Below, in pieces: positions 33,464 to 51,504 of a stretch of 64,000 nt of DNA. The position numbers and the translations under genes were made by a program. The notes beneath the pieces were generated by a model. That model was not told where the DNA came from. It did not search any database and was given only the letters and a program-made list of their open reading frames with translations. Source of the DNA: a virus; the IMG/VR virus record IMGVR_UViG_3300045988_122291, positions 32,001 through 96,000 of that record; one strand, written 5' to 3'. Numbering within the stretch: the first letter of the stretch is position 1; every line of letters begins with the position of its first letter.

Positions 33464-33508
33464 AAAAACAACCTCCTTAATATAACATAGCAATGTACGG
33501 CATAATCA

Positions 33509-33676
33509 TCAACCAAAAAGATAGTACACAGTAACAAGAGAAGTTACAAAATACACAATTAAGATATATCCAAAAATAAGTGTGTATTCTGAAGTAATAG
33601 CTAAATATAACAGCACTACAAAAATAGTAGTCCACAGCGTAATACCCAACGAAACCATAATAATTGTACCTACCAT
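33509..33676 (-). CDS. small membrane protein
   Basis: ATG at 33676 after ACAAAGGAGGTTGT; a promoter lies directly upstream. Two TM helices. Confidence 0.4.
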   Translation of the reverse strand: MVGTIIMVSLGITLWTTIFVVLLYLAITSEYTLIFGYILIVYFVTSLVTVYYLFG

Positions 33677-33705
33677 AAAAAACAACCTCCTTTGTTTATG
33701 TATCA

Positions 33706-33734
33706 ATGATACCACAAAGGAGGTTGTGTGTCAA
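33706..33734 (-). promoter_or_regulatory. sigma-A-type promoter (TTGACA-17-TGgTATCAT) nested in a 14-bp anti-SD/terminator hairpin
   Basis: Spacer arm ACAACCTCCTTTGT (complement of 33714-33727) pairs with the SD arm ACAAAGGAGGTTGT (complement of 33682-33695). TTTTTT and the ATG follow. Confidence 0.6.
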
Positions 33735-33750
33735 GAGAAATTATGAAATT

Positions 33751-34104
33751 TTATGAGATTTCAAGTGTGCCATAAGAGATTTCACCATAATCACCCAGAG
33801 AAGATAATTTTACGTCTACTTTGATAGAGAAACCATACTCATTACCTGTAGTAAATTCTTTGATAATTAAATGAACACCACCATTTTGACATTGCATTAA
33901 AATATCACAAGTCTCTCCCGTATTAGACATGAGTTTCGGTGAAAGCAAAAATCGTGAATTGTAATAGTCTCTAATGTAAATATAGCTTGTAGCAGGAACA
34001 TAAAATTCTCTATAAAAATCAGACCCCATATACAAGTCGTCAATCTTCTTATAAATCATAGCCCCACTTGTTTTCTCAATTTTTCCAGCTACAATCGCGT
34101 TCAT
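33751..34104 (-). CDS. hypervariable small protein, MNGIVTGK family, copy A (dispersed)
   Basis: MNAIVAGKIEKTSGAMIYKK N-terminus and ..GTLEIS C-terminus are shared with the array copies. A poly-G leader precedes it. Confidence 0.6.
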   Translation of the reverse strand: MNAIVAGKIEKTSGAMIYKKIDDLYMGSDFYREFYVPATSYIYIRDYYNSRFLLSPKLMSNTGETCDILMQCQNGGVHLIIKEFTTGNEYGFSIKVDVKLSSLGDYGEISYGTLEIS

Positions 34105-34185
34105 CGTACCACCTCCTTAGAGATGACACGGTTTACGTTACTGTGAAATGCCCCCCCCAAGTGAGCGCATAGTTTGGTAATTCAT
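34105..34185 (-). promoter_or_regulatory. leader cassette A: SD-led uORF 34138..34185 (MNYQTMRSLGGGISQ) containing G8 (34151-34158)
   Basis: AAAGGAGAAAATATT-ATG. With G8 the uORF stops at TAA 34138-34140. With G7 or G10 it reads ...SKEVVR and stops at a TGA overlapping the ATG of copy A (ATGA at 34101-34104). Confidence 0.6.
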
Positions 34186-34204
34186 AATATTTTCTCCTTT
34201 GTTT

Positions 34205-34486
34205 TTAATCTTTCTTAGGCGTAGTATAAGACTTAGCGTTTTCACTGTCGCCCATACCAAGAACACCATTTTGTGTAGTCGGGTCAACAAGTGCGTTCCA
34301 TACGTTGACACAGACAAGGAAGAGACAGTAAGGATTACTGATAGTACCCTTCAGCACGTTGAGCACGCCTGCCCATGTGGTCAAATCTGCCGCTGTTAGA
34401 CCTGCGTAAGCAAGTGCAGTAGCGAATGCACCAAGAATTACATTTACCCAAAACGCATAGTTTTTAATTCTCACCTTTAGATTCAT
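34205..34486 (-). CDS. holin (LL-H / phage_holin_4-like)
   Basis: Three hydrophobic segments and a polar tail ..DPTTQNGVLGMGDSENAKSYTTPKKD. Lies immediately downstream of the endolysin with an ATGA-type junction. Confidence 0.65.
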   Translation of the reverse strand: MNLKVRIKNYAFWVNVILGAFATALAYAGLTAADLTTWAGVLNVLKGTISNPYCLFLVCVNVWNALVDPTTQNGVLGMGDSENAKSYTTPKKD

Positions 34487-36210
34487 TACTCTTCACTCCC
34501 ATACATACCCACTCTATCGTTAATAACAAGAACTCGTAGCAAATCTTCACTTAGGTCAAGACCCTTGCCATTACCCTTGAGATAGCCCTTATTCACGAGC
34601 TTAATGATAGTGTCCTTACCCCAGTCTGGAACTGAAGCAATGCTATCATATACCTTATTGTACTTAGCGTACACTTCTTCAGCTACATTGCCAGCAACCT
34701 TCTTAGCTTCGGTCTGAGCAATAGCTGTGGTTTCTGCTTTAGTCAAATCTTCCACTCCTTTAACCATGTTTAGGAAATTAGTCCACTGTTCATAATGTCG
34801 CACGAAGGGGTCTGGACAATTACCTACAATAAATGTTTTTGTACCTTGGCGCACAAGAATATATCCTGTTGGCACACTTACACAAGACACTTTAGTTGTA
34901 CGAGTTTTTACACTCTTCTGAACACCACCAATACTATAATTAGCTGTTAAGCGATCAATAGCAAGATAATCATAACGAGTGCTTCTACCTAATCGTGTTT
35001 TGTTAGTACGATACCCCTTAGTCGCGCAAACAGCTTGTACAACGTCTAAGTTATTTTGAATAGAAGAAGTATAAAGATGTCCTGCTTCGCAACCGTCTAC
35101 TTGTAAACATTCGTTCCAAAATACGTCATATTGGTGTTGATTCATTTCCAATAAATTATATTGGAAATGCTTATCTTTAAGCCACTGTTCACACCAATAG
35201 TAAAGGTCTGTGCCATAATTACGGTAACTTACACTACCATCTTTCTTGTTAGAAACAGTATAGTCAATCATTAGGTTATCAAGAATCTCTTTAACTCTAT
35301 CAATCTTGCGTTGTTTCTTAACATGAAACTCAATGCCACATACATCTTGGTAAGTTCCCTTCATATAATGTCCGTCACCTTGTACCCATACAAGGAATCG
35401 AATTTCATCATCAGTGAGAGGTAAACCAGACCCAATATACATAGCACCGTTTTTAACTAAGTTTTGTCGAGAGCCTGTAAGCATATCTCCCCATAGTTGC
35501 TCACGCCATTTATATGTTCCAGTCTTTTTATTAAAATTATTGTTTGCCGCCCACATACGATGATTAGAAGTTGCTTCAAGACCATGACAGCTTAGAACTT
35601 CAGCTTCATAAGGCTCAACCACGCTACTAACAGCGCCAAAAGATAGTCTATCAGTATTAGTGTCATACTGCATAACTTCTTCTCCAACCTTAATATCTCC
35701 AAGAGCCTTCCAACCTTCGCGTGTTAGAAGTTCGGTTGAATCCAAAGGTAAACAATACTTATGTGTAACATGATAGTGCATACATACATGCTTAATATCA
35801 ACCCCATACTGTTCCATAAGCCATTGCACGAGCTTTACAGTACGCTTCTGGGTTTCCATAGTAATTACATATTCGCCATTCTTCCAGTCGCTGCACATTT
35901 CAATACCAATGGAATTAACGTTGCGACAGCTATTGTAATAATAGCCTGTTTCACTACCACAATGCCATGCAGTATTAGCAAGGTTTACAGTCTGCCAAAT
36001 TTCGTTCTCATCAACAAAGAAATGTGCGCTTGCATTAAGCCCACTACAACGAGCAAAATAATCTGCATTGTTCTTTGCAGTATCGCCCTTGCCAGCAGTA
36101 AAGTGAATAACAATCCATTGAATCTTATGCTTTACGCCATTCTTTGTGCGACCATACATAAAATTGGAAGGATTGCATTCCTTAAATTGAAAATATGGTT
36201 TTTCTGCCAT
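34486..36210 (-). CDS. N-acetylmuramoyl-L-alanine amidase endolysin (Amidase_2/PGRP) interrupted by an intein; SLH-like C-terminus
   Basis: WIVIHFTAG, AHFFVD, AWHCG, NSIGIEMC and H-x5-K-x-C split as HYHVTHKY|intein|CPDPF. The C-terminal VPDWGKDTIIKLVNKGYLKGNG..LSEDLLRVLVI looks SLH-like. Confidence 0.75.
   Translation of the reverse strand: MAEKPYFQFKECNPSNFMYGRTKNGVKHKIQWIVIHFTAGKGDTAKNNADYFARCSGLNASAHFFVDENEIWQTVNLANTAWHCGSETGYYYNSCRNVNSIGIEMCSDWKNGEYVITMETQKRTVKLVQWLMEQYGVDIKHVCMHYHVTHKYCLPLDSTELLTREGWKALGDIKVGEEVMQYDTNTDRLSFGAVSSVVEPYEAEVLSCHGLEATSNHRMWAANNNFNKKTGTYKWREQLWGDMLTGSRQNLVKNGAMYIGSGLPLTDDEIRFLVWVQGDGHYMKGTYQDVCGIEFHVKKQRKIDRVKEILDNLMIDYTVSNKKDGSVSYRNYGTDLYYWCEQWLKDKHFQYNLLEMNQHQYDVFWNECLQVDGCEAGHLYTSSIQNNLDVVQAVCATKGYRTNKTRLGRSTRYDYLAIDRLTANYSIGGVQKSVKTRTTKVSCVSVPTGYILVRQGTKTFIVGNCPDPFVRHYEQWTNFLNMVKGVEDLTKAETTAIAQTEAKKVAGNVAEEVYAKYNKVYDSIASVPDWGKDTIIKLVNKGYLKGNGKGLDLSEDLLRVLVINDRVGMYGSEE
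34819..35754 (-). mobile_element. intein (312 aa, residues 153-464) with LAGLIDADG-type homing endonuclease domain
   Basis: Starts CLPLDSTELLTREGW (block A Cys). Block B ATSNHRMW. LAGLIDADG-like FLVWVQGDGHY and ECLQVDGCEAG. Ends TKTFIVGN followed by the +1 Cys (TGT 34816-34818). Confidence 0.65.
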
Positions 36211-36229
36211 TATATCGTCTCCTTTCTTT

Positions 36230-36261
36230 AAGATAAAAGGGGAGAATATATCTCCCCTTAT
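36230..36261 (-). terminator. intrinsic terminator between the paralog operon and the endolysin gene
   Basis: Minus strand: AAGGGGAGA-TATAT-TCTCCCCTT followed by TTATCTT. Confidence 0.6.
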
Positions 36262-36267
36262 TTCAAA

Positions 36268-36471
36268 TTAAAGACCGTTATCAGCAAGTAGCTTGCGATA
36301 ATCAGCGGACAGGAGAGTTGCGCCAGTCTTTTCCTCGCGCCACTTAATGTAGACCGCACGTGCGAGGTCATCACGAGGAATGTTGTGCTTGTTGTCCCAC
36401 TGGTCGAGCTGTACACCAATGTCACCGGGGAGCTTTGCGATGTGTCGATGTTGTAGTTTGTAATTGTACAT
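36268..36471 (-). CDS. hypothetical protein
   Basis: Preferred ATG at 36471 after AAAGGAGAAG. Confidence 0.4.
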   Translation of the reverse strand: MYNYKLQHRHIAKLPGDIGVQLDQWDNKHNIPRDDLARAVYIKWREEKTGATLLSADYRKLLADNGL

Positions 36472-36502
36472 ATTTTTTTCTTCTCCTTTGTTTGCTTGAT
36501 TT

Positions 36503-36898
36503 TTATTCAAAGTAGCCTATTTCAATTTTATCAAAATAGTCACTCAAATAACCACTTAAACTTCTAATGTGTATTTCATCTCGGTCGGAATTATACCAAA
36601 CTGAAAATAATGAGTAATTTTGCCTCGGATAGTTTTTGGGTGATACATAGAAATTATTTTCTTTGTCATCGCTACTAATATCTCCCATAAAATTAGTGGG
36701 GAAAATAATAACTTCTTTTCCATCTGAAGTTTCTCTGTAAAATCTAAAAAGAATATTGTTTTTCGGCGTGCGATATAAATTTGTATTGTATAGCGTTAAA
36801 TTGTAATCATTCGGCATATTCCATGATTGTGTTACATGAAACACCATAGTGTCTCCGACACTTTTAGTTTCCTGTTTATTAGTGACAATAGCATTCAT
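36503..36898 (-). CDS. hypervariable small protein, MNGIVTGK family, copy H (no leader of its own)
   Basis: MNAIVTNKQETKSVGDTMVF... ends ..KIEIGYFE. Follows copy B after TAA-19 nt-ATG with SD AGGCGGTGA. Confidence 0.55.
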   Translation of the reverse strand: MNAIVTNKQETKSVGDTMVFHVTQSWNMPNDYNLTLYNTNLYRTPKNNILFRFYRETSDGKEVIIFPTNFMGDISSDDKENNFYVSPKNYPRQNYSLFSVWYNSDRDEIHIRSLSGYLSDYFDKIEIGYFE

Positions 36899-36917
36899 AC
36901 TGTCACCGCCTTTGAAG

Positions 36918-37220
36918 TTACTTTATGGAAATTCGATAGAATTTTGCATTTAATCCTTCTCTGTTGTTTGTTGCCCCCATTATATTTCCATTTTCGAAAT
37001 ATAAATGAACCGATGGTGCGTCTGGACTGACAGAAAAAGTTTTTCCGTCCCATTTTCCAATAGAGAAATCGTAACTGTAAAGAATATAAACACAAGGGTC
37101 GTTCGCTTTTGGTGTTTCTATTACTGTTCCATGGTATTCTATCCAAAAAGAACTGTTGTACACTATTTCGAACTCTTTGCTTGTTCCTAATCCAATGGGC
37201 AAAGTAATAATTCCGTTCAT
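36918..37220 (-). CDS. hypervariable small protein, MNGIVTGK family, copy B (shortened N-terminal motif)
   Basis: Only MNGIITLPIG of the family motif is retained. Preceded by leader cassette B. Confidence 0.5.
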   Translation of the reverse strand: MNGIITLPIGLGTSKEFEIVYNSSFWIEYHGTVIETPKANDPCVYILYSYDFSIGKWDGKTFSVSPDAPSVHLYFENGNIMGATNNREGLNAKFYRISIK

Positions 37221-37286
37221 TTACTCTGCCCCCCCCAGTTTAATCTGAAGAATGCTCATTGCTCAAATTCCTTTCTGAGCAATGAG
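37221..37286 (-). promoter_or_regulatory. leader cassette B: uORF 37221..37259 (MSILQIKLGGAE) with G8 (37229-37236); its ATG lies in an 11-bp hairpin
   Basis: CTCATTGCTCA-GAAAGGAATT-TGAGCAATGAG hairpin (37255-37286). The uORF stop TAA (37221-37223) abuts ATG 37220. With G7 the stop would become ATGA-overlapping. Confidence 0.5.
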
Positions 37287-37291
37287 AAGGT

Positions 37292-37666
37292 TTATTCAAA
37301 AGTGCCGATTTCTACTGAAGAAAGGTTATTTCTCATTTTAAAATTATCAGAAACTCCCAAAGCAAGTCTTATGCTGGGGTCTGAATATTTTTTTACAACC
37401 TCTACCCAATCTGCTTCGTTAGGCGAAAGATATGTCGCAATCGTCGAACTGTCGTTATCTACCATTACAAAGCGCATTGAAATATAAGCTACTCTGTCAC
37501 CAAAAGATTCTATTTTTAAGAAATAAGGTGGCTCAAGATAAGAAGTATTTGGCACATAAAAATACATGAGTGCAGTTGCTTCTGTAGGAACACTGCCTAC
37601 TAAAGCAGTTTTCCATACCAAACTTCCAGCCTGTTTCTCTTGCTTACCAGTCACAATACCGTTCAC
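37292..37666 (-). CDS. hypervariable small protein, MNGIVTGK family, copy C (GTG start)
   Basis: (GTG)NGIVTGKQEKQAGSLVWK... ends ..VEIGTFE. Confidence 0.6.
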   Translation of the reverse strand: MNGIVTGKQEKQAGSLVWKTALVGSVPTEATALMYFYVPNTSYLEPPYFLKIESFGDRVAYISMRFVMVDNDSSTIATYLSPNEADWVEVVKKYSDPSIRLALGVSDNFKMRNNLSSVEIGTFE

Positions 37667-37818
37667 TCTTGTGCACCTTCTTTCGGTGCATACTTCTCAT
37701 TGCTCAAATAATTTAGTGGGAGACTATGCCCCCCCCCAGTTGAAACTGAGGTTGACTTACAAATACACATTTTTGTGTCTCCTTTGTTATGTGTTGTTTG
37801 TAATTTGAGCAATGGGAA
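37663..37818 (-). promoter_or_regulatory. leader cassette C: uORF 37663..37770 (35 aa) with G9 (37729-37737), in the coupled (ON) frame
   Basis: ACAAAGGAGACACAAAA-ATG. MCICKSTSVSTGGGHSLPLNYLSNEKYAPKEGAQE. The TGA overlaps the GTG start (GTGA). SD hairpin TGCACC-GAAAGAA-GGTGCA (37672-37690). Flanking arms CATTGCTCAAAT/ATTTGAGCAATG (37803-37814 and 37698-37709). Confidence 0.65.
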
Positions 37819-37821
37819 GGG

Positions 37822-38178
37822 TTAAGAAAATAATTCAAAACCTAAATTACTATATTCATTAGTAGTAATAGTATTGGTATTGAAATTTATGGTAAGCGTT
37901 GCAACTGAAGAGCTACCTATGCCATTAAGAGTGATAACCGATTGTTTATAAATAGCCCCTGTTTCATATCCAGAACTGCTATTTATAACAATCGCATATT
38001 TCTCTTGAGGAAAAATCACACAATAGGTCGTATAATAACTACGATATGTTTCAGTAGCAATAACTGAATATTTATCTATATCAGTAATCGTTGCATTACC
38101 ATTGTAGTATTGCCGAACAGCAGAAGTTGGCACTTTACCACCAGTTGTTTCAATCTTACCCGTTACAATTCCGTTCAT
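37822..38178 (-). CDS. hypervariable small protein, MNGIVTGK family, copy D
   Basis: MNGIVTGKIETTGGKVPTS... ends ..LGFELFS. Confidence 0.6.
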   Translation of the reverse strand: MNGIVTGKIETTGGKVPTSAVRQYYNGNATITDIDKYSVIATETYRSYYTTYCVIFPQEKYAIVINSSSGYETGAIYKQSVITLNGIGSSSVATLTINFNTNTITTNEYSNLGFELFS

Positions 38179-38332
38179 CCAACAGCACCAACTTTCTTCA
38201 GTGCTGTTCCATTGCTCAAATTAAAGTTTAGGAGAATGCTAACGCATTGCCCCCCCCCAACTGAAGTCAGGGTTGACTGAATGTTAAACATAAATGTTCT
38301 CCTTTTGTATAGTTTTTATTTGAGCAATGGAA
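38175..38332 (-). promoter_or_regulatory. leader cassette D: uORF 38175..38291 (38 aa) with G9 (38250-38258), in the coupled (ON) frame
   Basis: CAAAAGGAGAACATTT-ATG. MFNIQSTLTSVGGGQCVSILLNFNLSNGTALKKVGAVG. The TGA overlaps the ATG (ATGA). Hairpin AACAGCAC..GTGCTGTT (38181-38208). Flanking 15-nt arms at 38318-38332 and 38207-38221. Confidence 0.65.
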
Positions 38333-38337
38333 GGGAA

Positions 38338-38691
38338 TTACCAATAAATGAAAACTGCCATATTCGTTCCGACATATGTTAATGTCATTGCTGAGAAATC
38401 GACAGTATACAATGCTGAAGTTGAAGTAGCGGGAGAATAAAAAGTATAGACAGTATCGGTAATTATTTTTCTATCTTCCCAATCAACGGGTTGAGGGAGA
38501 TATATGATATATTTTCCTTGTGGATATATCTCATAGCATCCGTGCGAACTTATATATGTTCTAATGCACCTTAATTTAGATATATCGAAAGGAGAATTTG
38601 TTTTATCAATAACAGGTCTTTCTATGCTTGTAGGCACAGTATCACTTATACTTTGCTTTTCTTCAATTTTACCGCTAACAATCCCATTCAT
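38338..38691 (-). CDS. hypervariable small protein, MNGIVTGK family, copy E
   Basis: MNGIVSGKIEEKQSISDT... Confidence 0.6.
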   Translation of the reverse strand: MNGIVSGKIEEKQSISDTVPTSIERPVIDKTNSPFDISKLRCIRTYISSHGCYEIYPQGKYIIYLPQPVDWEDRKIITDTVYTFYSPATSTSALYTVDFSAMTLTYVGTNMAVFIYW

Positions 38692-38838
38692 ACAGTCACC
38701 TGCTTTCGGTGACTAACATTGCTCAAAAAGGACTTTCGCCCTATTAGGAAGTTATTGCCCCCCCCAAGTGAAACATAAGTTCACTCAGAGAAAACTTGAT
38801 ACGCATGGTATCACTCCTTGTTATTTAATTGAGCAACG
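38692..38838 (-). promoter_or_regulatory. leader cassette E: uORF 38744..38806 (MRIKFSLSELMFHLGGAITS) with G8 (38758-38765), uncoupled (OFF) frame
   Basis: CAAGGAGTGATACC-ATG. With G9 it would read ...GGGNNFLIGRKSFLSNVSHRKQVTV and stop at a TGA overlapping ATG 38691 (ATGA). SD hairpin GTCACC-GAAAGCA-GGTGAC (38695-38713). Flanking arms at 38829-38838 and 38717-38726 with one G-U. Confidence 0.65.
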
Positions 38839-38860
38839 TGTGTGAAGGGTGGTTAAGTGG

Positions 38861-39202
38861 TTAGGAAATTTCGAGAATGCCAAGTTCTAATGAGTTCATA
38901 CATTCGCTAAAAGGAATGAAACGTGAAGCAGAATTAGTTCGAACCATACAAGCGCCTTGCCACTGGCTACAATAAATGTTGTCTGGTAAATCCAGTGTTA
39001 TGTGCCTTTCATCATCTCGCGAAATCACGAAATTTTTCACGCAAATTAAAGTAATATTATTACTTTTATCTATAATACGAATATACTTCAAAGCATTATA
39101 GTCAAAAGTAAAATTTGATTGACTTAAATCAATCGACTGTTCACTCTTAAACACCATACTACCAGCAGTCTTTTCAATCTTGCCAGTTACTATACCATTC
39201 AT
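38861..39202 (-). CDS. hypervariable small protein, MNGIVTGK family, copy F
   Basis: ATG at 39202 (the track starts at GTG 39205). MNGIVTGKIEKTAGSMVFK... ends ..LGILEIS. Confidence 0.6.
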   Translation of the reverse strand: MNGIVTGKIEKTAGSMVFKSEQSIDLSQSNFTFDYNALKYIRIIDKSNNITLICVKNFVISRDDERHITLDLPDNIYCSQWQGACMVRTNSASRFIPFSECMNSLELGILEIS

Positions 39203-39314
39203 CACAAGACCTCCTTTCGGAGGTTGCCAATCCTGTTGCTCAAAGGAAAGGCATTTCCAATCATTAGGTTAGAACAATGCCCCCCAAGTGAATGAGAGTT
39301 TTAGTCTTAATCAT
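39203..39314 (-). promoter_or_regulatory. leader cassette F: uORF 39264..39314 (MIKTKTLIHLGGIVLT) with G6 (39280-39285), uncoupled (OFF) frame
   Basis: TAAGGAGAATACAT-ATG. With G7 it would read ...GGHCSNLMIGNAFPLSNRIGNLRKEVL and stop at a TGA overlapping the start (UGAUG). SD hairpin ACCTCC-GAAA-GGAGGT (39209-39224). Confidence 0.65.
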
Positions 39315-39325
39315 ATGTATTCTCC

Positions 39326-39754
39326 TTACATATTGTCTACAATTTCGTGCATCTTATCTTCAAGATGAATCGCAACGAACGATAGTAACGCCCATGCACA
39401 ACAGAAGAATAGATTACACTGTCCAAAAAAGAAGGTAAACGGTAAGTGGCTGTAATCCCACACATCCATATGCAGGATGTTATTCAGCACTACACCAGTT
39501 AATCCTTCAAGAACTGTGATAACCACGGTTCCAATTACTACTTGTTGCCATTGCTTGAATTGGTGTTTTCCTTCGTTTAGCAGTCCTACAATAACGAAAC
39601 ATAGCCCGCCGAGAACTGCCATAGTCCAGTTGGTTGGTTTGCCTTTCCAAATGGTTTCGATGGCGAAGTAAAGCATACCACCCATCACACCAAACAGCGC
39701 ATGGACAAGTATTGAATTTAGTTTATGCTTCATAGCTTTAAGCCAACTTAGCAA
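39326..39754 (-). CDS. integral membrane protein (about 4 TM)
   Basis: Four hydrophobic helices. Lies directly upstream of the paralog array in the same operon. Confidence 0.5.
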   Translation of the reverse strand: MLSWLKAMKHKLNSILVHALFGVMGGMLYFAIETIWKGKPTNWTMAVLGGLCFVIVGLLNEGKHQFKQWQQVVIGTVVITVLEGLTGVVLNNILHMDVWDYSHLPFTFFFGQCNLFFCCAWALLSFVAIHLEDKMHEIVDNM

Positions 39755-40418
39755 GCATAGCGTCCATCTGAGCCTTTGCAGAAGCCAATACCTTAACTTC
39801 TTGTTCTGCCAGCTTACCAGTTAGTTCAGTTGCAAGGGTTACTGCCTTAACAGCGTCCTTATCTTCACAGCTATTTACATACTGTTTTAGCAAGTTACCG
39901 TGTGTAGTCAGCTTAGTGATGAGCGTTTGCATACTCACGTACAAGCTGACAATATCAGCCTTTGGATAAATTACACATTCCTTGCCGTCAGCATGGTAAG
40001 GAAATTCTTCAACGCCCATAACAACTGCATTAAAGATATTACCAATGTTGGCTTGGTCGTTTGCTGTTAGGCTGAAATGTTCATCACCATAAGAAGTCTT
40101 AACGTCAACGCCAGCATAAATAGTTTGCTCAACTGAATTGTTAAGAGAATTGATAACTTGACCACGAAGTTCTTCAATAGTCGGCTCATAAGGAGTAGGA
40201 GCTTCTTCCTTGTCCCAGTGAACCGTATTACCTACGCATTCCCAAATCTTATAATCTGACTTCTTGAGAGTGCAAAGTTCTTCGTCAATGTCAGTGACAA
40301 ATCGAATTGTATCACCAAGTTCAATATCATGAACCTTATCAAGCGTAATGTAGCAACGTTCGGAATTGATGATACCTTCTACATTTTCATATGTTTTCTT
40401 ATTAGTAATTAGTTTCAT
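39738..40418 (-). CDS. DUF4376-like (tail-fiber-associated domain) protein
   Basis: The central segment INSLNNSVEQTIYAGVDVKTSYGDEHFSLTANDQANIGNIFN resembles the DUF4376 domain of fiber and fiber-assembly proteins (from memory). Confidence 0.4.
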   Translation of the reverse strand: MKLITNKKTYENVEGIINSERCYITLDKVHDIELGDTIRFVTDIDEELCTLKKSDYKIWECVGNTVHWDKEEAPTPYEPTIEELRGQVINSLNNSVEQTIYAGVDVKTSYGDEHFSLTANDQANIGNIFNAVVMGVEEFPYHADGKECVIYPKADIVSLYVSMQTLITKLTTHGNLLKQYVNSCEDKDAVKAVTLATELTGKLAEQEVKVLASAKAQMDAMLAKLA

Positions 40419-40816
40419 TAAACTACCTCACCTACTACTTGAACAGTAAAATCTACTGAAGGCTTTGTAGAGCCAGAAGTTCTTAGAGTCAAAGTATTCG
40501 TACCTGTTGTGCCGTAATCTGCAAGCAATGCAAATGCAGTTTTCTGATTAGCCGCCGCTGTTGCGTCAGAACTCGGCAGAAGATAAATAATTGGCTGATA
40601 GCGCATATTGATAGCAAGACCACTAATTGTTTGTGTTTGCTGATAAACACCGCCACTTGAACTCCAACCACCAGAATAGAAAGTAGCTGTACCAAAAACG
40701 GTCTTGCCTACTTCAAGGTTTTGTCGTGCGCCTTGGGCAGTTGTTGCACCAGTGCCACCGTCAGGGATTGGAACAGGGTAAACGTAACCTTGCCCTGTTA
40801 TTGCTCCATAACCCAT
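40418..40816 (-). CDS. short tail-fiber-like protein
   Basis: The N-terminal PIPDGGTGATTAQGARQNLEVG motif is characteristic of phage fiber N-termini. Confidence 0.45.
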   Translation of the reverse strand: MGYGAITGQGYVYPVPIPDGGTGATTAQGARQNLEVGKTVFGTATFYSGGWSSSGGVYQQTQTISGLAINMRYQPIIYLLPSSDATAAANQKTAFALLADYGTTGTNTLTLRTSGSTKPSVDFTVQVVGEVV

Positions 40817-40870
40817 TCAATCACTTCCTTTTGTCAAAATTTAGGCGAATCTCTCGCCTTTGATATTAGC

Positions 40871-40899
40871 ATTATACCACATCCTTATACATTTGTCAA
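40871..40899 (-). promoter_or_regulatory. sigma-A-type promoter (TTGACA-17-TGgTATAAT) heading the fiber-like/paralog operon
   Basis: Consensus -35, 17-nt spacer, TG extension, consensus -10. Confidence 0.65.
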
Positions 40900-40921
40900 G
40901 AGGTAAATTGTAAATAATTTG

Positions 40922-42013
40922 TTAATTATTTAGAATATCAATCGTCCGTGCTTCATACAGCTTTTGCCATGCCTGAAAATCGCGGTCTACTGCATTTTCC
41001 TTGCGTTCAAGTAAACCCAAGCTATCCCACACAACATCAACTTGTGCAAGACCAGACCAAAGTTCAGCTTGCTTCATAATCTTATTGTTCCATTGCTCAA
41101 ACTCTGTGTCTGTGCCGCCAGTAGCATCATTATCTACAATAAGAACAACATGATTAACGCCCAACTTTAACAGTTGATTCCTGCGTTGTAAGCCAAGCTG
41201 TGAGCCGAACATAGCGACTGCTGTTGATTGTGAGCCGAGAAAGCTATGCAATTTAAGCACCGCTTTCTCGCTTTCGGCAATCATTACAGTACCAGTACGT
41301 TCTATTTCATATTGGTTCTGCGCCAATCCATATAGCACTGCGTTAGTAGGGAACTTATAGATAGTGCCATCCAACAGTTGCAAAGGTCGATATTTACCAT
41401 TTATTGCATTTTCACCCCAATACCTGCAACGAATCCCTACTAAGTCATAATTTTCATTGAACACAGGAATGGTCGTTCCCCATTCTCGTCCATACCAGCC
41501 GATACGAAACAAGGCTTGCGTTTCTTCGCTTATGCCTTCATTCACCCATTCTTGGCATGGTACATTGGGAATAGCGTCAAGAATAGAAATATCATAAGTC
41601 GGCAATAAACTACCGCCGTTTCGTACTGTAATGAACTTCTCAAGTCCAGACCAATCCGTGATATTAGGGTTGGCTACACGCTGAACTTGAGAAGATTCAA
41701 TACCAGTAACATCAAGAATGTAATTTACTGCGTCTACGAAAGAACAAGGTTGCTTTAGTAGAGATAATCGTGTTTGGGTTAGTGAGATAATGTCGTATGA
41801 ACGTCCAGCGGTTAAGCCAAGATAAATGCTTGTATCTGGATAAAATAGTAACTTTGCTGAACCATCTAAAGCATTAACATTCTTATCGCCAGTAAAGTAA
41901 ACAATTTCATTTGGGTGTTCCATGTAGATAGGAATACCCAACGACTTCATTATCTTTTTGTGGTCGTCAATAGTTAATCGGGCTTTCAGAGCCTTAGTAT
42001 TTATCTTAGCCAT
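40922..42013 (-). CDS. dnaG: DNA primase (Toprim domain)
   Basis: Toprim Glu in VMIAESEKAVLKL and DxD in VVLIVDNDATGG. Confidence 0.55.
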   Translation of the reverse strand: MAKINTKALKARLTIDDHKKIMKSLGIPIYMEHPNEIVYFTGDKNVNALDGSAKLLFYPDTSIYLGLTAGRSYDIISLTQTRLSLLKQPCSFVDAVNYILDVTGIESSQVQRVANPNITDWSGLEKFITVRNGGSLLPTYDISILDAIPNVPCQEWVNEGISEETQALFRIGWYGREWGTTIPVFNENYDLVGIRCRYWGENAINGKYRPLQLLDGTIYKFPTNAVLYGLAQNQYEIERTGTVMIAESEKAVLKLHSFLGSQSTAVAMFGSQLGLQRRNQLLKLGVNHVVLIVDNDATGGTDTEFEQWNNKIMKQAELWSGLAQVDVVWDSLGLLERKENAVDRDFQAWQKLYEARTIDILNN

Positions 42014-45152: not shown

Positions 45153-46262
45153 TTATGAATAAGCTATTTCAAGCCCTTTTTTCAAGATGTTAACACTTGC
45201 GTTAATATCTCTATCATGTTTAGTATGGCACTCAGGACACTCCCAAGTACGAACATCCAGATTCTTAACCAGAGGATTCTTGTAACCACAGTAGCTACAA
45301 GTCTGGCTACTTGGGTACATAGTAGGGACACTGATTACCGTATTACCATACCATTCACCTTTATACTTGAGCATAGCAAAGAATTTAGACCACGAAGCAC
45401 TTGCGATTGACCGCGCAAGATTATGATTACGCATCATACCTTTTACATTCAAGTCCTCTATGCAGATAGTTTGGTTTTCGCGTATCAGCATAGTTGACTG
45501 CTTTTGTAAAAAGTCATTTCTTTGATTAGTAATCTTTTCGTAGATACAAGCTAACTTAATACGTTGTTTATTACGATTGTTAGAGCCTAATTGCTTACGA
45601 GAAAGACCGCGCTGTGCTCTAATGAGTTTACGAGCAGATTTCTCTAAAAACTTTGGATTAGGAATTTTGTTACCGTTACTATCTGTATAGAAATCTTTAA
45701 TTCCCACATCAATACCAACAGTTCCATTTGCATTGTTCATAAGCTGTGGCTCAAAATCAACATTGAGAACTACGAAATATTTGCCAGACGGTGTTCTTTC
45801 AACAGTGACATTGTTAATATGCCCAACTTCCATAGATTGTTTAATTTTTATATATCCCAATTTAGGCAATCTAATATATTTCCCTACAATGCGAATAGTA
45901 TTTACATGGTTAATCGTTCTATAAGACTGATAATTGTTATGTTTATTCTTAAATTTTGGATATTTAGACTTTTTAGCAAAGAATTTTTTATAACCTTTAT
46001 CTAAATCTCTTAAAGATTGCTGCAGAGCAATAGAATCCAATTCTTTAAGAAAATTAAATTCTTCTTGTTGTTTAAGTGCCGTTAGCATGGCACAAGTTCC
46101 ACTATACCCAACACTAATGCCATTTTTATAGGAATCTCTACGCATAACCAGACCTTTATTATACACAAGTCTGCAACCGCCAAAAATTCGATTTATTAAA
46201 TTTTTCTGTGTTTTATTGGGATAGACCCTGAATTTAATACCTTTTTGCATATAATTTCCCAT
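45153..46262 (-). CDS. tnpB: TnpB (IS200/IS605-family RNA-guided endonuclease), no tnpA adjacent
   Basis: N-terminal [29 protein letters not shown]. RuvC D in [11 protein letters not shown] and E in [11 protein letters not shown]. Zinc finger CSYCG..CPECH followed by [10 protein letters not shown]. Confidence 0.85.
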
Positions 46263-51006: not shown

Positions 51007-51387
51007 TTATTCCAAAAATCCAAAAGTTAAAGATTTTAATAAACCAAAAGAAGAAGTTCCTGCTATATGTTGTTTCTCCCAATATATATCGTCATCATCA
51101 CGTGTCCGGAAGCGGTAAAATTTAATACTTTCATAAATTGAATCATTTTCACCCAAAAGTTCAAAAGAACCACCTACACTGAATGAATTTATAGACAGAT
51201 AAGTATATGCTATTCCTGTTGGTTGTTGCATACCTATTCTTAGCGTATATTTATAAAATCTTCCAACCAAATCATAATATCTTAATTCATACGGAGAGTT
51301 GTCATTCGCAACATCCCATACAGCAACTTCGTTAAATACCAAACTTCCGGCTGGCTTTTCCATTTTACCAGAGATAATTGCGTTCAT
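51007..51387 (-). CDS. hypervariable small protein, MNGIVTGK family, copy G (dispersed)
   Basis: MNAIISGKMEKPAGSLVFNE... ends ..LTFGFLE. Preceded by a poly-G leader. Confidence 0.6.
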   Translation of the reverse strand: MNAIISGKMEKPAGSLVFNEVAVWDVANDNSPYELRYYDLVGRFYKYTLRIGMQQPTGIAYTYLSINSFSVGGSFELLGENDSIYESIKFYRFRTRDDDDIYWEKQHIAGTSSFGLLKSLTFGFLE

Positions 51388-51465
51388 GCAATCACCTCCT
51401 TACTGCTTACAGCGTTAAGCCGTATGCCCCCCCCAAGTGGAAACAAAGTTTACTAATTTAAACAT
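51388..51465 (-). promoter_or_regulatory. leader cassette G: uORF 51415..51465 (MFKLVNFVSTWGGHTA) with G8 (51427-51434), uncoupled frame
   Basis: AAAGGAGGGCATTTTT-ATG. With G7 or G10 it would read ...WGGIRLNAVSSKEVIA and stop at a TGA overlapping ATG 51387 (ATGA). Confidence 0.6.
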
Positions 51466-51504
51466 AAAAATGCCCTCCTTTAATTTATGTTATGAGGAAA
51501 ATCC

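Follow-up and report, generated by a model that had tools for sequence, protein, structure and literature searches.

Paralog array and its genomic setting

The window (the whole stretch of viral DNA analysed, 64,000 nucleotides) carries an array of six paralogous ORFs, F, E, D, C, B, and A, at 36503..39205 on the minus strand, and two more paralogs, G and H, lie outside this array. The array sits beside fibre-like genes, and the paralogs are small variable proteins in which the termini are conserved and the core varies. The ORFs and the signals around them are as follows.

40871..40899, minus strand: consensus promoter of the sigma-70-like type (TTGACA-17-TATAAT, TG present), lying 5' of both the fibre-like genes and the array
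38861-39205, minus strand: paralog F ORF
38338-38691, minus strand: paralog E ORF
37822-38178, minus strand: paralog D ORF
37292-37666, minus strand: paralog C ORF
36918-37220, minus strand: paralog B ORF
36503-36898, minus strand: paralog A ORF
36237..36259, minus strand: intrinsic-terminator-like hairpin with a T run, 3' of the array and the following 80-aa gene, just 5' of the endolysin gene
33751-34104, minus strand: paralog G ORF, outside the array
51007-51387, minus strand: paralog H ORF, outside the array, start at 51387

We found no megablast match to positions 33500-41000 among the INPHARED phages and no relatives of paralog D among the viral contigs searched. The 226-aa neighbour protein had no match in 185,579 bacterial and archaeal genomes and thus offered no prophage or host clue. 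The comparison set comprised 25 loci (L001-L025) from related gut-phage contigs, several of which overlap or are near-duplicates.

Pfam and PHROG scans of the paralogs returned nothing significant, and a Foldseek search with an AF2 model (pLDDT 74.7) gave no match below E = 0.02. The Foldseek list was headed by the fibre tip of T7 gp17 and by tail-fibre or BppU proteins, none of them a significant match. As a hint only, these matches suggest that the paralogs may resemble fibre tips and have a putative role in host recognition. The paralog profile also matched giant repeat proteins (P0018 and P0051, the latter consisting of Flg_new repeats), and these matches look compositional. Relatives fall into only 84 clusters at 50% identity.

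Hairpins at the paralog starts

A preliminary description of this DNA had placed a hairpin immediately 5' of four paralog start codons (F, E, D, and C). We recovered all four at the positions below, where they fold from the minus (coding) strand at -8.5 to -12.5 kcal/mol, and they persisted when the whole cassettes were folded. Furthermore, unit G has a fifth hairpin of the same kind, which was absent from that description and abuts the ATG directly.

39209-39224, minus strand: unit F hairpin, ACCTCC-GAAA-GGAGGT, -9.5 kcal/mol; the 3' arm is the Shine-Dalgarno (SD) sequence, with the GUG-AUG start 3-6 nt downstream
38695-38713, minus strand: unit E hairpin, GTCACC-GAAAGCA-GGTGAC, -8.5 kcal/mol; extends to 38693-38715 as (U)AGUCACC-GAAAGCA-GGUGACU(G)
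38181-38208, minus strand: unit D hairpin, AACAGCAC...GTGCTGTT, -12.5 kcal/mol, 11 bp
37672-37690, minus strand: unit C hairpin, TGCACC-GAAAGAA-GGTGCA, -8.9 kcal/mol
37255-37286, minus strand: unit B inverted-repeat hairpin, CUCAUUGCUCA-GAAAGGAAU-UGAGCAAUGAG, preceding a mini-leader
34105-34130, minus strand: unit G hairpin, CGTGTCATCTC-TAAG-GAGGTGGTACG (RNA CGUGUCAUCUC-UAAG-GAGGUGGUACG), -13.2 kcal/mol

The burial of the ribosome-binding site in a hairpin therefore holds for units F, E, C, and D, and also for G. It is not universal, since paralog H of the window has a polyG leader in which no SD hairpin was found, and unit A has neither a leader nor a 5' hairpin (shuffle z = +0.69). The SD had been assigned to the 3' arm, and this was borne out in unit F and, as the SD-like GGUGA, in unit E. 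In unit D, for which no strong SD had been apparent, SD-like purines (AGAAAG) lie in the hairpin loop, and the stem ends 2 nt 5' of the ATG. The same arrangement, with SD-like purines in the loop and the spacer covered by the stem, is seen in D-type and GCTGGCA-type cassettes generally.

The GAAAG-type loop had been taken as a special motif. Instead, it proved to be the 5' half of an extended SD sequence (GAAAGGAGGTGA), which is used genome-wide and occurs in 10 of 74 ordinary genes versus 2.2% expected. It follows that the 5' arm of the hairpin is a cis copy of the anti-SD.

Leader ORFs and frame geometry

The paralogs other than A are preceded by short leader ORFs that contain a polyG tract. 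In every cassette, inverted repeats of 11-15 bp that flank a leader segment of about 95 nt form a long-range helix, P1.

39264..39314, minus strand: unit F leader, OFF, 16 codons; polyG 39280-39285 (6 G); long frame at 7 or 10 G, its terminal TGA overlapping the start at 39202/39205
38744..38806, minus strand: unit E leader, OFF; polyG 38758-38765 (8 G); long frame at 6 or 9 G
38829-38838/38717-38726, minus strand: unit E P1 arms
38175..38291, minus strand: unit D leader, long frame ON, 38 codons; polyG 38250-38258 (9 G); TGA overlaps the ATG (ATGA)
38207..38332, minus strand: unit D P1, 5' arm 38318-38332 and 3' arm 38207-38221, enclosing the leader RBS, the polyG tract, and the early stops
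37663..37770, minus strand: unit C leader, long frame ON, 35 codons; polyG 37729-37737 (9 G); stop overlaps the GTG (GTGA)
37803-37814/37698-37709, minus strand: unit C P1 arms
37221..37286, minus strand: unit B hairpin and 12-codon mini-leader; polyG 37229-37236; ends in TAA directly before the ATG
34138..34185, minus strand: unit G leader, OFF; polyG 34151-34158 (8 G); long frame at 7 or 10 G
51415..51465, minus strand: paralog H leader, OFF; polyG 51427-51434 (8 G)

The proposal that a ribosome on the long-frame leader would pass through the stem, while one stopping early would not reach it, agrees with the geometry. In every listed cassette, in the window and in the fetched loci, exactly one of the three polyG frames runs through the hairpin; relative to the paralog start, it stops at +1 (ATGA) or -2 (TGATG). 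Stops in the two remaining frames fall 22-93 nt short of that start (pooled over unique cassettes, median -60, with 93% at or beyond -45), and the hairpin occupies roughly -30 to -2. In unit G, only 5 nt separate the 5' base of the stem from the closest early stop upstream of it, so a ribosome terminating there might open a few base pairs.

Altogether, 100 cassettes with this frame geometry were found in 26 sequences, and 73 of them are OFF-frame in the consensus. The commonest tract length, n = 8, is OFF in all cassette types. Across the window and the fetched loci, orthologous tracts vary between 6 and 10 G, a homopolymer of about 7 or more being long enough to slip. Along 6.5 kb, L004 and L005 are identical except for a single mismatch and a tract of 8 G in one and 10 G in the other. 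All of these sequences are consensus assemblies, in which homopolymers can be miscalled.

Could the leader frame be changed mainly during expression, as ribosomes shift frame or RNA polymerase slips on the G run, behind a hairpin gate that is real? Every cassette would then yield a fixed, low long-frame fraction, as the prevalence of OFF cassettes and of n = 8 might suggest. G runs of 8-9 are slippery, and several tracts are closely followed on the 3' side by a small hairpin (e.g., AAUGC-GUUA-GCAUU in D and AGGGC-GAAA-GUCCU in E). However, these structures vary in position and form across cassette types, and tract length is clearly different in the DNA of near-identical genomes. We therefore regard slippage during expression as an unlikely main route, while noting that it and DNA-level switching are not mutually exclusive.

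Stability against controls

The stems had been predicted to be more stable than shuffled controls, and they exceeded both the shuffles and the genome background, with F alone marginal. For segments -40..+3, the dinucleotide-shuffle z was -2.71 for E, -3.76 for D, and -3.42 for C, but only -1.40 for F. Paralog starts occupy MFE ranks 1-5, 8, and 9 among the 82 predicted gene starts in the window, where the control starts average -3.6 +/- 2.5 kcal/mol. The cost of opening -16..+2 was higher at the paralog starts than at 74 controls (Mann-Whitney p = 0.0007). Over all loci, the median MFE was -12.6 at 48 unique paralog start regions versus -4.0 at 307 controls (p about 1e-18), and the mean shuffle z over 72 unique leader-coupled starts was -1.94, some cassettes outside the window having weak hairpins (maximum z = +0.94).

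The leader starts in the same cassettes, on the other hand, are unstructured (MFE -4.2 vs -12.3 kcal/mol at the paralog starts), and no hairpin was found at 14 ordinary gene pairs in which the stop codon overlaps the next start (mean MFE -3.3). The hairpin free energies, -8.5 to -13.7 kcal/mol overall, are comparable to the SD:anti-SD duplex energies of -10 to -16 kcal/mol; consequently, the block may be leaky.

Rfam gave no relevant match in 33500-41000 at E <= 1. The terminator scan called no SD hairpin terminator-like on the minus (coding) strand, where no terminator-like T run follows the hairpins; within cassettes, it made a single weak call on that strand, at the polyG tract of unit F. 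The palindrome of unit C scores as a terminator on the antisense strand only.

Alternatively, the hairpins might act as RNA stability, processing, or insulation elements (e.g., RNase barriers), with an incidental overlap of the SD and leader-independent translation of the paralogs. The occurrence of P1 in every cassette suggests a larger RNA architecture, and paralog H in the window goes without the SD hairpin; both would fit such a role. The position of the hairpins argues against it: their end always lies 0-6 nt 5' of the start codon, the SD or the spacer is always included, and the long frame of the leader always terminates exactly on the start codon. Ordinary intercistronic junctions of the same genome, moreover, lack such structures. 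We consider this explanation improbable.

Covariation and conservation

The preliminary description had also noted that the stems differ between units while pairing is kept, and related phages confirm this with compensatory and G:U-type changes, such as U-A > U-G > C-G and ACCUCC/GGAGGU versus CACUCC/GGGGUG. Covariation of the SD hairpins was assessed within cassette types (alignments A4, A5, and A7) because cross-type MAFFT alignments (A2 and A6) set the 3' arms out of register; RNAalifold on the cross-type alignment A6 recovers P1 only. In sequences that were few, related, and hand-picked by the analyst, E/C-type stems were 92% paired vs 78.5% in shuffles (0/500 as high), with three pairs changing on both sides, and F/H-type stems were 85.7% paired vs 66.6% (0/500), with five such pairs. 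A third stem class was 100% paired with 5/9 pairs varying, in five sequences, a number at which the shuffle control is uninformative. In L001 and L017, an extra GCAA-capped stem replaces the loop of unit F, and the outer stem is kept.

Are the hairpins by-products, that is, chance palindromes arising from purine-rich SDs or from selection on the leader peptide? The low z of the F segment would allow this, and the paralog start regions are richer in G+C than the controls (0.456 vs 0.372). Yet composition was controlled by the dinucleotide shuffles, compensatory double changes are seen, and structure is absent from leader starts whose SDs are just as strong. The long-frame leaders do share K-E/Q-V-like C-termini, but the K-E-V similarity arises because the SD (AAGGAGGT) is read in frame. 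Furthermore, CCGAAAG is read in two codon phases, that in C differing from that in E and F, which places the conservation at the nucleotide rather than the peptide level. A by-product origin is, thus, highly improbable.

Even less probable is an action of the palindromes as DNA, either as invertase or recombinase sites bounding invertible leader segments or as regulator operators. The inverted repeats that flank each leader segment would suit such a function, and the conserved cassette ends could promote recombination. However, 59 of 61 long-loop repeat pairs hold polyG in the gene orientation and none holds polyC, so no inverted copy of the segment was seen. The changes in P1 and in the SD hairpin obey RNA wobble rules, with G:U intermediates, and the stem sequences differ between units, which leaves no common operator. 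Among the neighbouring genes, PHROG and Pfam scans found no invertase, the sole recombination-type match being a TnpB-like gene, and these limited family scans found no reverse transcriptase.

Possible phase-variable translational coupling

What, then, would the leader and the hairpin do together? The hairpins, their excess stability and covariation, the frame geometry, and the polyG length polymorphism are best read as an obligatory, phase-variable translational coupling, to which we assign a probability of roughly 0.7. The leader ORF, short and with a strong, unstructured RBS, would be constitutively translated. Its polyG tract of 6-10 G would be hypermutable and would set the frame by slipped-strand gain or loss of G, probably in a frequent and reversible manner. 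In two frames, the ribosome would halt about 50-80 nt before the paralog and leave the RBS locked in the hairpin, whose 5' arm would mimic the anti-SD (OFF); the hairpin would presumably block independent initiation. In the third frame, the ribosome would read through, melting the hairpin and the 3' strand of P1, terminate at the overlapping stop (ATGA, GTGA, or TGATG), and probably re-initiate at the paralog start with the freed SD (ON). The hairpin would thereby tie expression strictly to the leader frame, and it is in this sense that, judging from the sequence, the coupling appears obligatory.

More tentatively, and with somewhat less than even confidence, we suggest that the cassette (P1, leader, polyG, SD hairpin, and overlapping stop/start) is a portable contingency switch placed before 6-8 interchangeable, possibly fibre-tip-like proteins in an uncultured human-gut phage lineage (about 100-113 kb). 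Each virion lineage would express a random subset of the paralogs, in up to about 2^7 combinations, as a bet-hedging of host range or host interaction. The switch cassettes are 88-100% identical between phages and the payload ORFs only 55-60%; conservation of the module above its payloads suggests that the module is the unit under selection.

Should the switch operate as proposed, phase variation would not have to reside within the regulated gene, and a roughly 150-nt module could bring any ORF 3' of it under stochastic ON/OFF control and leave the protein unaltered. It would add a third route to phage phenotypic diversity beside DNA inversion and diversity-generating retroelements, and would offer a compact, testable design for synthetic stochastic switches. 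Gene calling in metagenomic phages would also be affected, because a consensus records one state per switch.

Comparison with known systems

Coupling through ribosome-mediated unfolding of an RBS-sequestering structure operates in E. coli rpmI-rplT (infC operon) and in the MS2 coat-to-replicase and coat-to-lysis pairs. As in those systems, the downstream SD and start lie here in a local structure that only a ribosome from the upstream ORF would open, and the stop and start overlap or abut. There, however, a real gene whose frame never changes serves as the upstream ORF, whereas its place is taken here by a dedicated 12-45-codon leader, repeated as part of a module 6-8 times per genome. Since a mutable polyG tract sets the leader frame, the coupling itself would be switchable.

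In the translational attenuation of ermC and cat by leader peptides, drug-induced stalling is the signal and an alternative hairpin arises. The cassettes likewise have a short leader ORF 5' of an SD-burying hairpin, and the position of the ribosome would decide whether the SD is exposed. Unlike in ermC and cat, the signal here would be genetic (tract length) and the ribosome would read through the hairpin to the overlapping stop; no alternative-pairing element as in erm/cat was identified in the cassettes.

Phages also alternate their host-interaction proteins by inversion (the Mu Gin/G-segment and P1 Cin systems) and by diversity-generating retroelements. An array of alternative small variable proteins beside fibre-like genes is common to those systems and to this one, but inversion was not seen here, and neither an invertase nor a reverse transcriptase emerged from the limited family scans.

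Bacterial contingency loci are known from Campylobacter, Neisseria, and Haemophilus. Hypermutable polyG tracts in receptor-binding protein genes of Campylobacter Fletchervirus phages are described by Sorensen et al. (Cell Rep 2021, as cited in PMC12823448 and PMC10877375). As far as the citing articles recount that work, the length of a G tract there, as in contingency loci and as proposed here, switches a gene ON or OFF, and a genome with several independent tracts gains combinatorial diversity. In the same accounts, the tract lies inside the regulated ORF, whose protein is truncated by a frameshift; the tract described here belongs to a separate ORF 5' of the paralog, to which hairpin-gated coupling would link it. 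The payload is free of the tract, and the switch would be portable (cassettes 88-100% conserved, ORFs 55-60% identical). We did not find hairpin-gated uORF phase variation described for phages or bacteria in the literature searched. Hairpin-gated coupling and polyG phase variation are thus each known, and it is their modular combination that appears to be new.

Genomic setting of the paralogs

Every gene of the region is carried on the minus strand. Six small paralogous genes (units F, E, D, C, B and A) form an array between a fibre-like gene pair, followed by a CmpB-like gene, and the lysis module. Upstream of the operon lies a consensus promoter, and downstream of it a terminator-like hairpin.

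Features of the region
40899..40871, −, consensus promoter
40816..40418, −, fibre-like gene 1, paired with fibre-like gene 2
40418..39738, −, fibre-like gene 2, matching PHROG tail fibre phrog_1348
39754..39326, −, CmpB-like membrane protein
39205..38861, −, paralog F, array
38691..38338, −, paralog E, array
38178..37822, −, paralog D, array
37666..37292, −, paralog C, array
37220..36918, −, paralog B, array
36898..36503, −, paralog A, array
36259..36237, −, terminator-like hairpin
36210..34486, −, Amidase_2 endolysin, lysis module
34486..34205, −, holin, lysis module
34104..33751, −, paralog G, outside the array after the holin, with its own polyG leader (region 33751-34199)
51387..51007, −, paralog H, outside the array among replication genes, with its own polyG leader (region 51007-51480)

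The surrounding genes encode a primase, DNA polymerase, helicases and a RecJ-like exonuclease. The phage is uncultured, and syntenic contigs of 100–113 kb are present in human-gut metagenomes. Of 50,697 phage records, none closely matched a query with 33500-41000, and a 226-aa neighbour found no relatives in 185,579 bacterial and archaeal genomes. The endolysin (34486-36210, −) has 574 aa here compared with 262–263 aa in the related loci L004 and L007; the extra stretch of ~310 aa, located after the amidase domain, begins with Cys, ends in ...VGN|C, has no Pfam match and looks intein-like. A TnpB-like gene (45153-46262, −) with HTH_OrfB_IS605, OrfB_IS605 and Cas12f1-like TNB domains also lies within the phage genome.

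What do the paralogs encode? They share an N-terminal MNGIVTGKIEKTAGS and a C-terminal GTLEI around a variable core, and match no Pfam or PHROG family. Their family is small: a set of 1.84 billion representative proteins contains 84 clusters of it at 50% identity. The AF2 model of paralog F (pLDDT 74.7) is an all-beta domain of eight strands. None of its Foldseek matches was significant; the top ones were the fibre tip of T7 gp17 (E = 0.07, TM 0.37), the heads of adenovirus fibres, and tail proteins of the BppU or gp12-like kind. The place of the paralogs beside the fibre-like genes fits a possible role in host recognition. Repeated stretches of two giant repeat proteins, P0018 (5703 aa) and P0051 (1019 aa, made up of Listeria-Bacteroides (Flg_new) repeats), match the paralog profile; these matches are probably compositional, and a distant fold relationship is possible.

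Stable hairpins at the paralog starts

The preliminary description placed hairpins immediately 5' of the F, E, C and D starts, and these positions proved exact on the minus strand. A similar hairpin, the fifth, lies before paralog G.

Hairpins before the paralog starts
39209-39224, −, unit F, ACCUCC-GAAA-GGAGGU, −9.5 kcal/mol
38695-38713, −, unit E, GUCACC-GAAAGCA-GGUGAC, −8.5 kcal/mol
37672-37690, −, unit C, UGCACC-GAAAGAA-GGUGCA, −8.9 kcal/mol
38181-38208, −, unit D, AACAGCAC...GUGCUGUU, −12.5 kcal/mol
34105-34130, −, unit G, −13.2 kcal/mol

The first four were retained in minimum-energy folds of the whole cassettes. Compared with dinucleotide shuffles of the −40..+3 segments, E, D and C were clearly more stable (z = −2.71, −3.76 and −3.42), whereas F reached only −1.40; the value for G was −2.61. 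The excess is clearer against the genome's own background than against shuffles. When the 82 starts predicted in the window were ranked by MFE, places 1–5 went to D, G, F, E and H, place 8 to B and place 9 to C, with control starts averaging −3.6 ± 2.5 kcal/mol, and the opening energy of −16..+2 was higher at paralog starts than at 74 controls (p = 0.0007). When loci fetched from related gut-phage contigs (L001–L025) were included, the median MFE was −12.6 kcal/mol for 48 unique paralog start regions; the 307 controls had −4.0, and several of the most stable among them proved to be additional cassette members. Over 72 unique leader-coupled starts, the shuffle z-score averaged −1.94.

Three internal controls support a link between hairpin and leader: the hairpin is absent from 14 ordinary stop/start-overlapping gene pairs (mean MFE −3.3) and from 5' of the leaderless unit A (z = +0.69), and leader starts are open compared with paralog starts of the same cassettes (MFE −4.2 versus −12.3). 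Unit A (36882-36906, −) has a small helix, GUGACA...UGUCAC, in which codons 5–6 pair with the 3' part of the SD and the ATG sits in the loop. The 144-aa gene just 3' of H (start region 50933, −) has one of the most structured RBSs of the window, with an opening energy of 16.6 kcal/mol and its SD AGAAAGGAGA paired almost throughout.

The description of the hairpins themselves needs revision. GAAAG-type loops do not hold up as a motif, as GAAAG also occurs at −25..−4 of 10 of 74 ordinary genes (2.2% expected), and only F has a true C-GAAA-G tetraloop. Loop and 3' arm together read GAAAGGAGGU(GA), the complement of a Firmicute-type 16S 3' end (...GAUCACCUCCUUUCU); the 5' arms (ACCUCC, UCACC) thus copy the anti-SD in cis. 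Placement of the SD in the 3' arm, described for F, E and C, is not general: D and a class with the stem GCUGGCA have SD-like purines in the loop, and their stem spans the spacer as far as the start codon. What the cassettes have in common is a stable helix at −30..−2, with the SD not always in its 3' arm. Burial of the RBS stands for F, E, C and D, but H in the window has a leader without an SD hairpin; its orthologues do have one (UCACCUCGC-GAAA-GUGGGGUGA in L004, ACCUCA-GAAA-UGAGGU in L022).

Pairing is kept while the stems vary

As proposed from the window, the stems differ while pairing is kept, and pairing-preserving changes occur within cassette types. In the E type, GUCACC/GGUGAC changes to GGUGGC (U-G) in L007 and to GCCACC/GGUGGC (C-G) in L019. 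Two double changes separate the F-type stem ACCUCC/GGAGGU from its counterpart CACUCC/GGGGUG in L018 and L023. In L001, L015 and L017, UA-UAC-GCAA-GUA-A takes the place of the GAAA loop of F; it forms an added inner stem that again ends in a GNRA loop, on top of the retained outer stem. The disruptive changes observed (C in L010, D in L007, E in L001) all fall at or near helix ends.

Pairing in the aligned stems
E/C type: 8 sequences; 92.2% of cells paired; shuffle mean 78.5%, 0/500 as high; 3 pairs changed on both sides; slid registers 23–50%
F/H type: 9 sequences; 85.7% of cells paired; shuffle mean 66.6%, 0/500 as high; 5 pairs changed on both sides; slid registers 32–62%
Third class, GCUGGCA-UGAAGGGAAG-UGUCGGC: 5 sequences; 100% paired; shuffle mean 98.2%, 138/500 as high (uninformative at this size); 1 pair changed on both sides; varying pairs 5/9; slid registers 22–44%

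As the sets are small, the sequences related and the registers picked by the analyst, these counts support the stem structure without being proof of it.

Could the hairpins be mere by-products? The dinucleotide shuffles and the covariation contradict this, as does codon phase: CCGAAAG is split into codons as C-CGA-AAG in E and F and as CCG-AAA-G in C, indicating conservation of nucleotides and not of leader amino acids.

The polyG tract sets whether the leader frame crosses the hairpin

Units F, E, D, C, G and H are each preceded by a short ORF, the leader, that contains a G run and has AAGGAG as its strong SD; unit B has a shorter version. Leaders of all listed cassettes from the window and related loci were translated at the observed tract length and with −2 to +2 Gs. 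Exactly one frame class per cassette crosses the hairpin, as predicted for the long frame, and its stop overlaps the paralog start at +1 (ATGA or GTGA) or −2 (TGATG). The other two classes, expected to fall short, end 22–93 nt upstream (pooled over unique cassettes, median −60; 93% at or beyond −45), and the start-nearest helix lies at about −30 to −2. Long-frame leaders commonly end in K-E/Q-V because the SD AAGGAGGU is read in frame. A role of the hairpins purely in RNA stability or insulation would not explain the exact stop/start overlap.

With a detector independent of the paralog N-terminus, 100 cassettes were found in the consensus sequences of the window and L001–L025, 27 in the ON frame, which reads through to the paralog start, and 73 in an early-stopping OFF frame. 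Window states are ON for D and C (both 9 G) and OFF for F (6 G) and for E, G and H (all 8 G). Eight Gs, the commonest length over all these cassettes, is OFF in every full leader type (F, E, D, C, G, H and X); the exception is the mini-leader of unit B (8 G), whose stop TAA directly precedes the ATG. Relative to 8 G, the F, G, H and X types would reach the ON frame by losing a single G, and the E, D and C types by gaining one. The consensus sequences usually hold 1–3 ON cassettes per genome.

Orthologous tracts vary among close relatives (every length from 7 to 10 G in unit C, from 6 to 9 G in unit F and from 7 to 9 G in unit E), these lengths being assembly consensus, where homopolymers may be miscalled. 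Over 6.5 kb, L004 and L005, from different samples, differ by one mismatch and in the unit C tract (8 versus 10 G). Judged by these sequence comparisons, the polyG tract is mutable.

The mini-leader of unit B (within 37221-37286) is a 35-nt stretch with polyG that relatives lack. In these (L004 9985-10010; L007 10030-10055), the paralog starts at an ATG inside TTGAGCAATG. This ATG belongs to the 3' arm of a hairpin (−13 kcal/mol) whose loop carries an SD-like GAAAGGAAT. The unit B-type paralog may therefore be coupled to the upstream phase-variable paralog C.

A predicted long-range helix brackets each leader

Single-sequence folds and RNAalifold gave a helix of 11–15 bp, P1 (CAUUGCUCAAAU/AUUUGAGCAAUG), around each leader.

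P1 arms
38829-38838/38717-38726, −, unit E
38318-38332/38207-38221, −, unit D
37803-37814/37698-37709, −, unit C

The P1 repeat CATTGCTCAAAT...ATTTGAGCAATG encloses the leader, the polyG tract and the early stops, and its 3' strand is translated in the long frame only. Across cassette types, P1 covaries from CA...UG to UG...CA via G:U intermediates. DNA-level inversion of the leader segment is contradicted by these changes, which obey wobble rules, and by inverted copies being found in 0 of 61 repeat pairs. The switch cassettes are 88–100% identical compared with only 55–60% for the payload ORFs (37292-39205 versus L004 and L007). Consequently, the module looks portable, and the pattern suggests payload exchange or diversification bounded by cassettes.

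Proposed mechanism and known systems

Phase-variable, obligatory translational coupling is the best-supported reading of these sequences. Leader translation would be constant. At an OFF length, the ribosome would stop early, the hairpin would stay closed and the paralog would be silent; at an ON length, the ribosome would read on, melt the hairpin, end at the overlapping stop and re-initiate. RBS hairpins of −9 to −14 kcal/mol are strongly inhibitory (MS2, synthetic RBS work). The SD:anti-SD duplexes in the cassettes are also strong (−10 to −16 kcal/mol), so some leaky paralog expression is possible. Slippage on the G run during expression could act in place of, or beside, DNA switching.

Ribosome-opened RBS hairpins (rpmI-rplT, MS2), leader-peptide attenuation (ermC) and polyG phase variation are all established. 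Campylobacter phages show the last of these, according to the passages of PMC12823448 and PMC10877375 that cite Sorensen 2021. In the full-text literature searched, we found no account of a mutable tract that sits in a dedicated upstream ORF and is read out via hairpin-gated coupling. Hairpin-gated coupling switched by such a tract therefore appears to be a new combination of known kinds.
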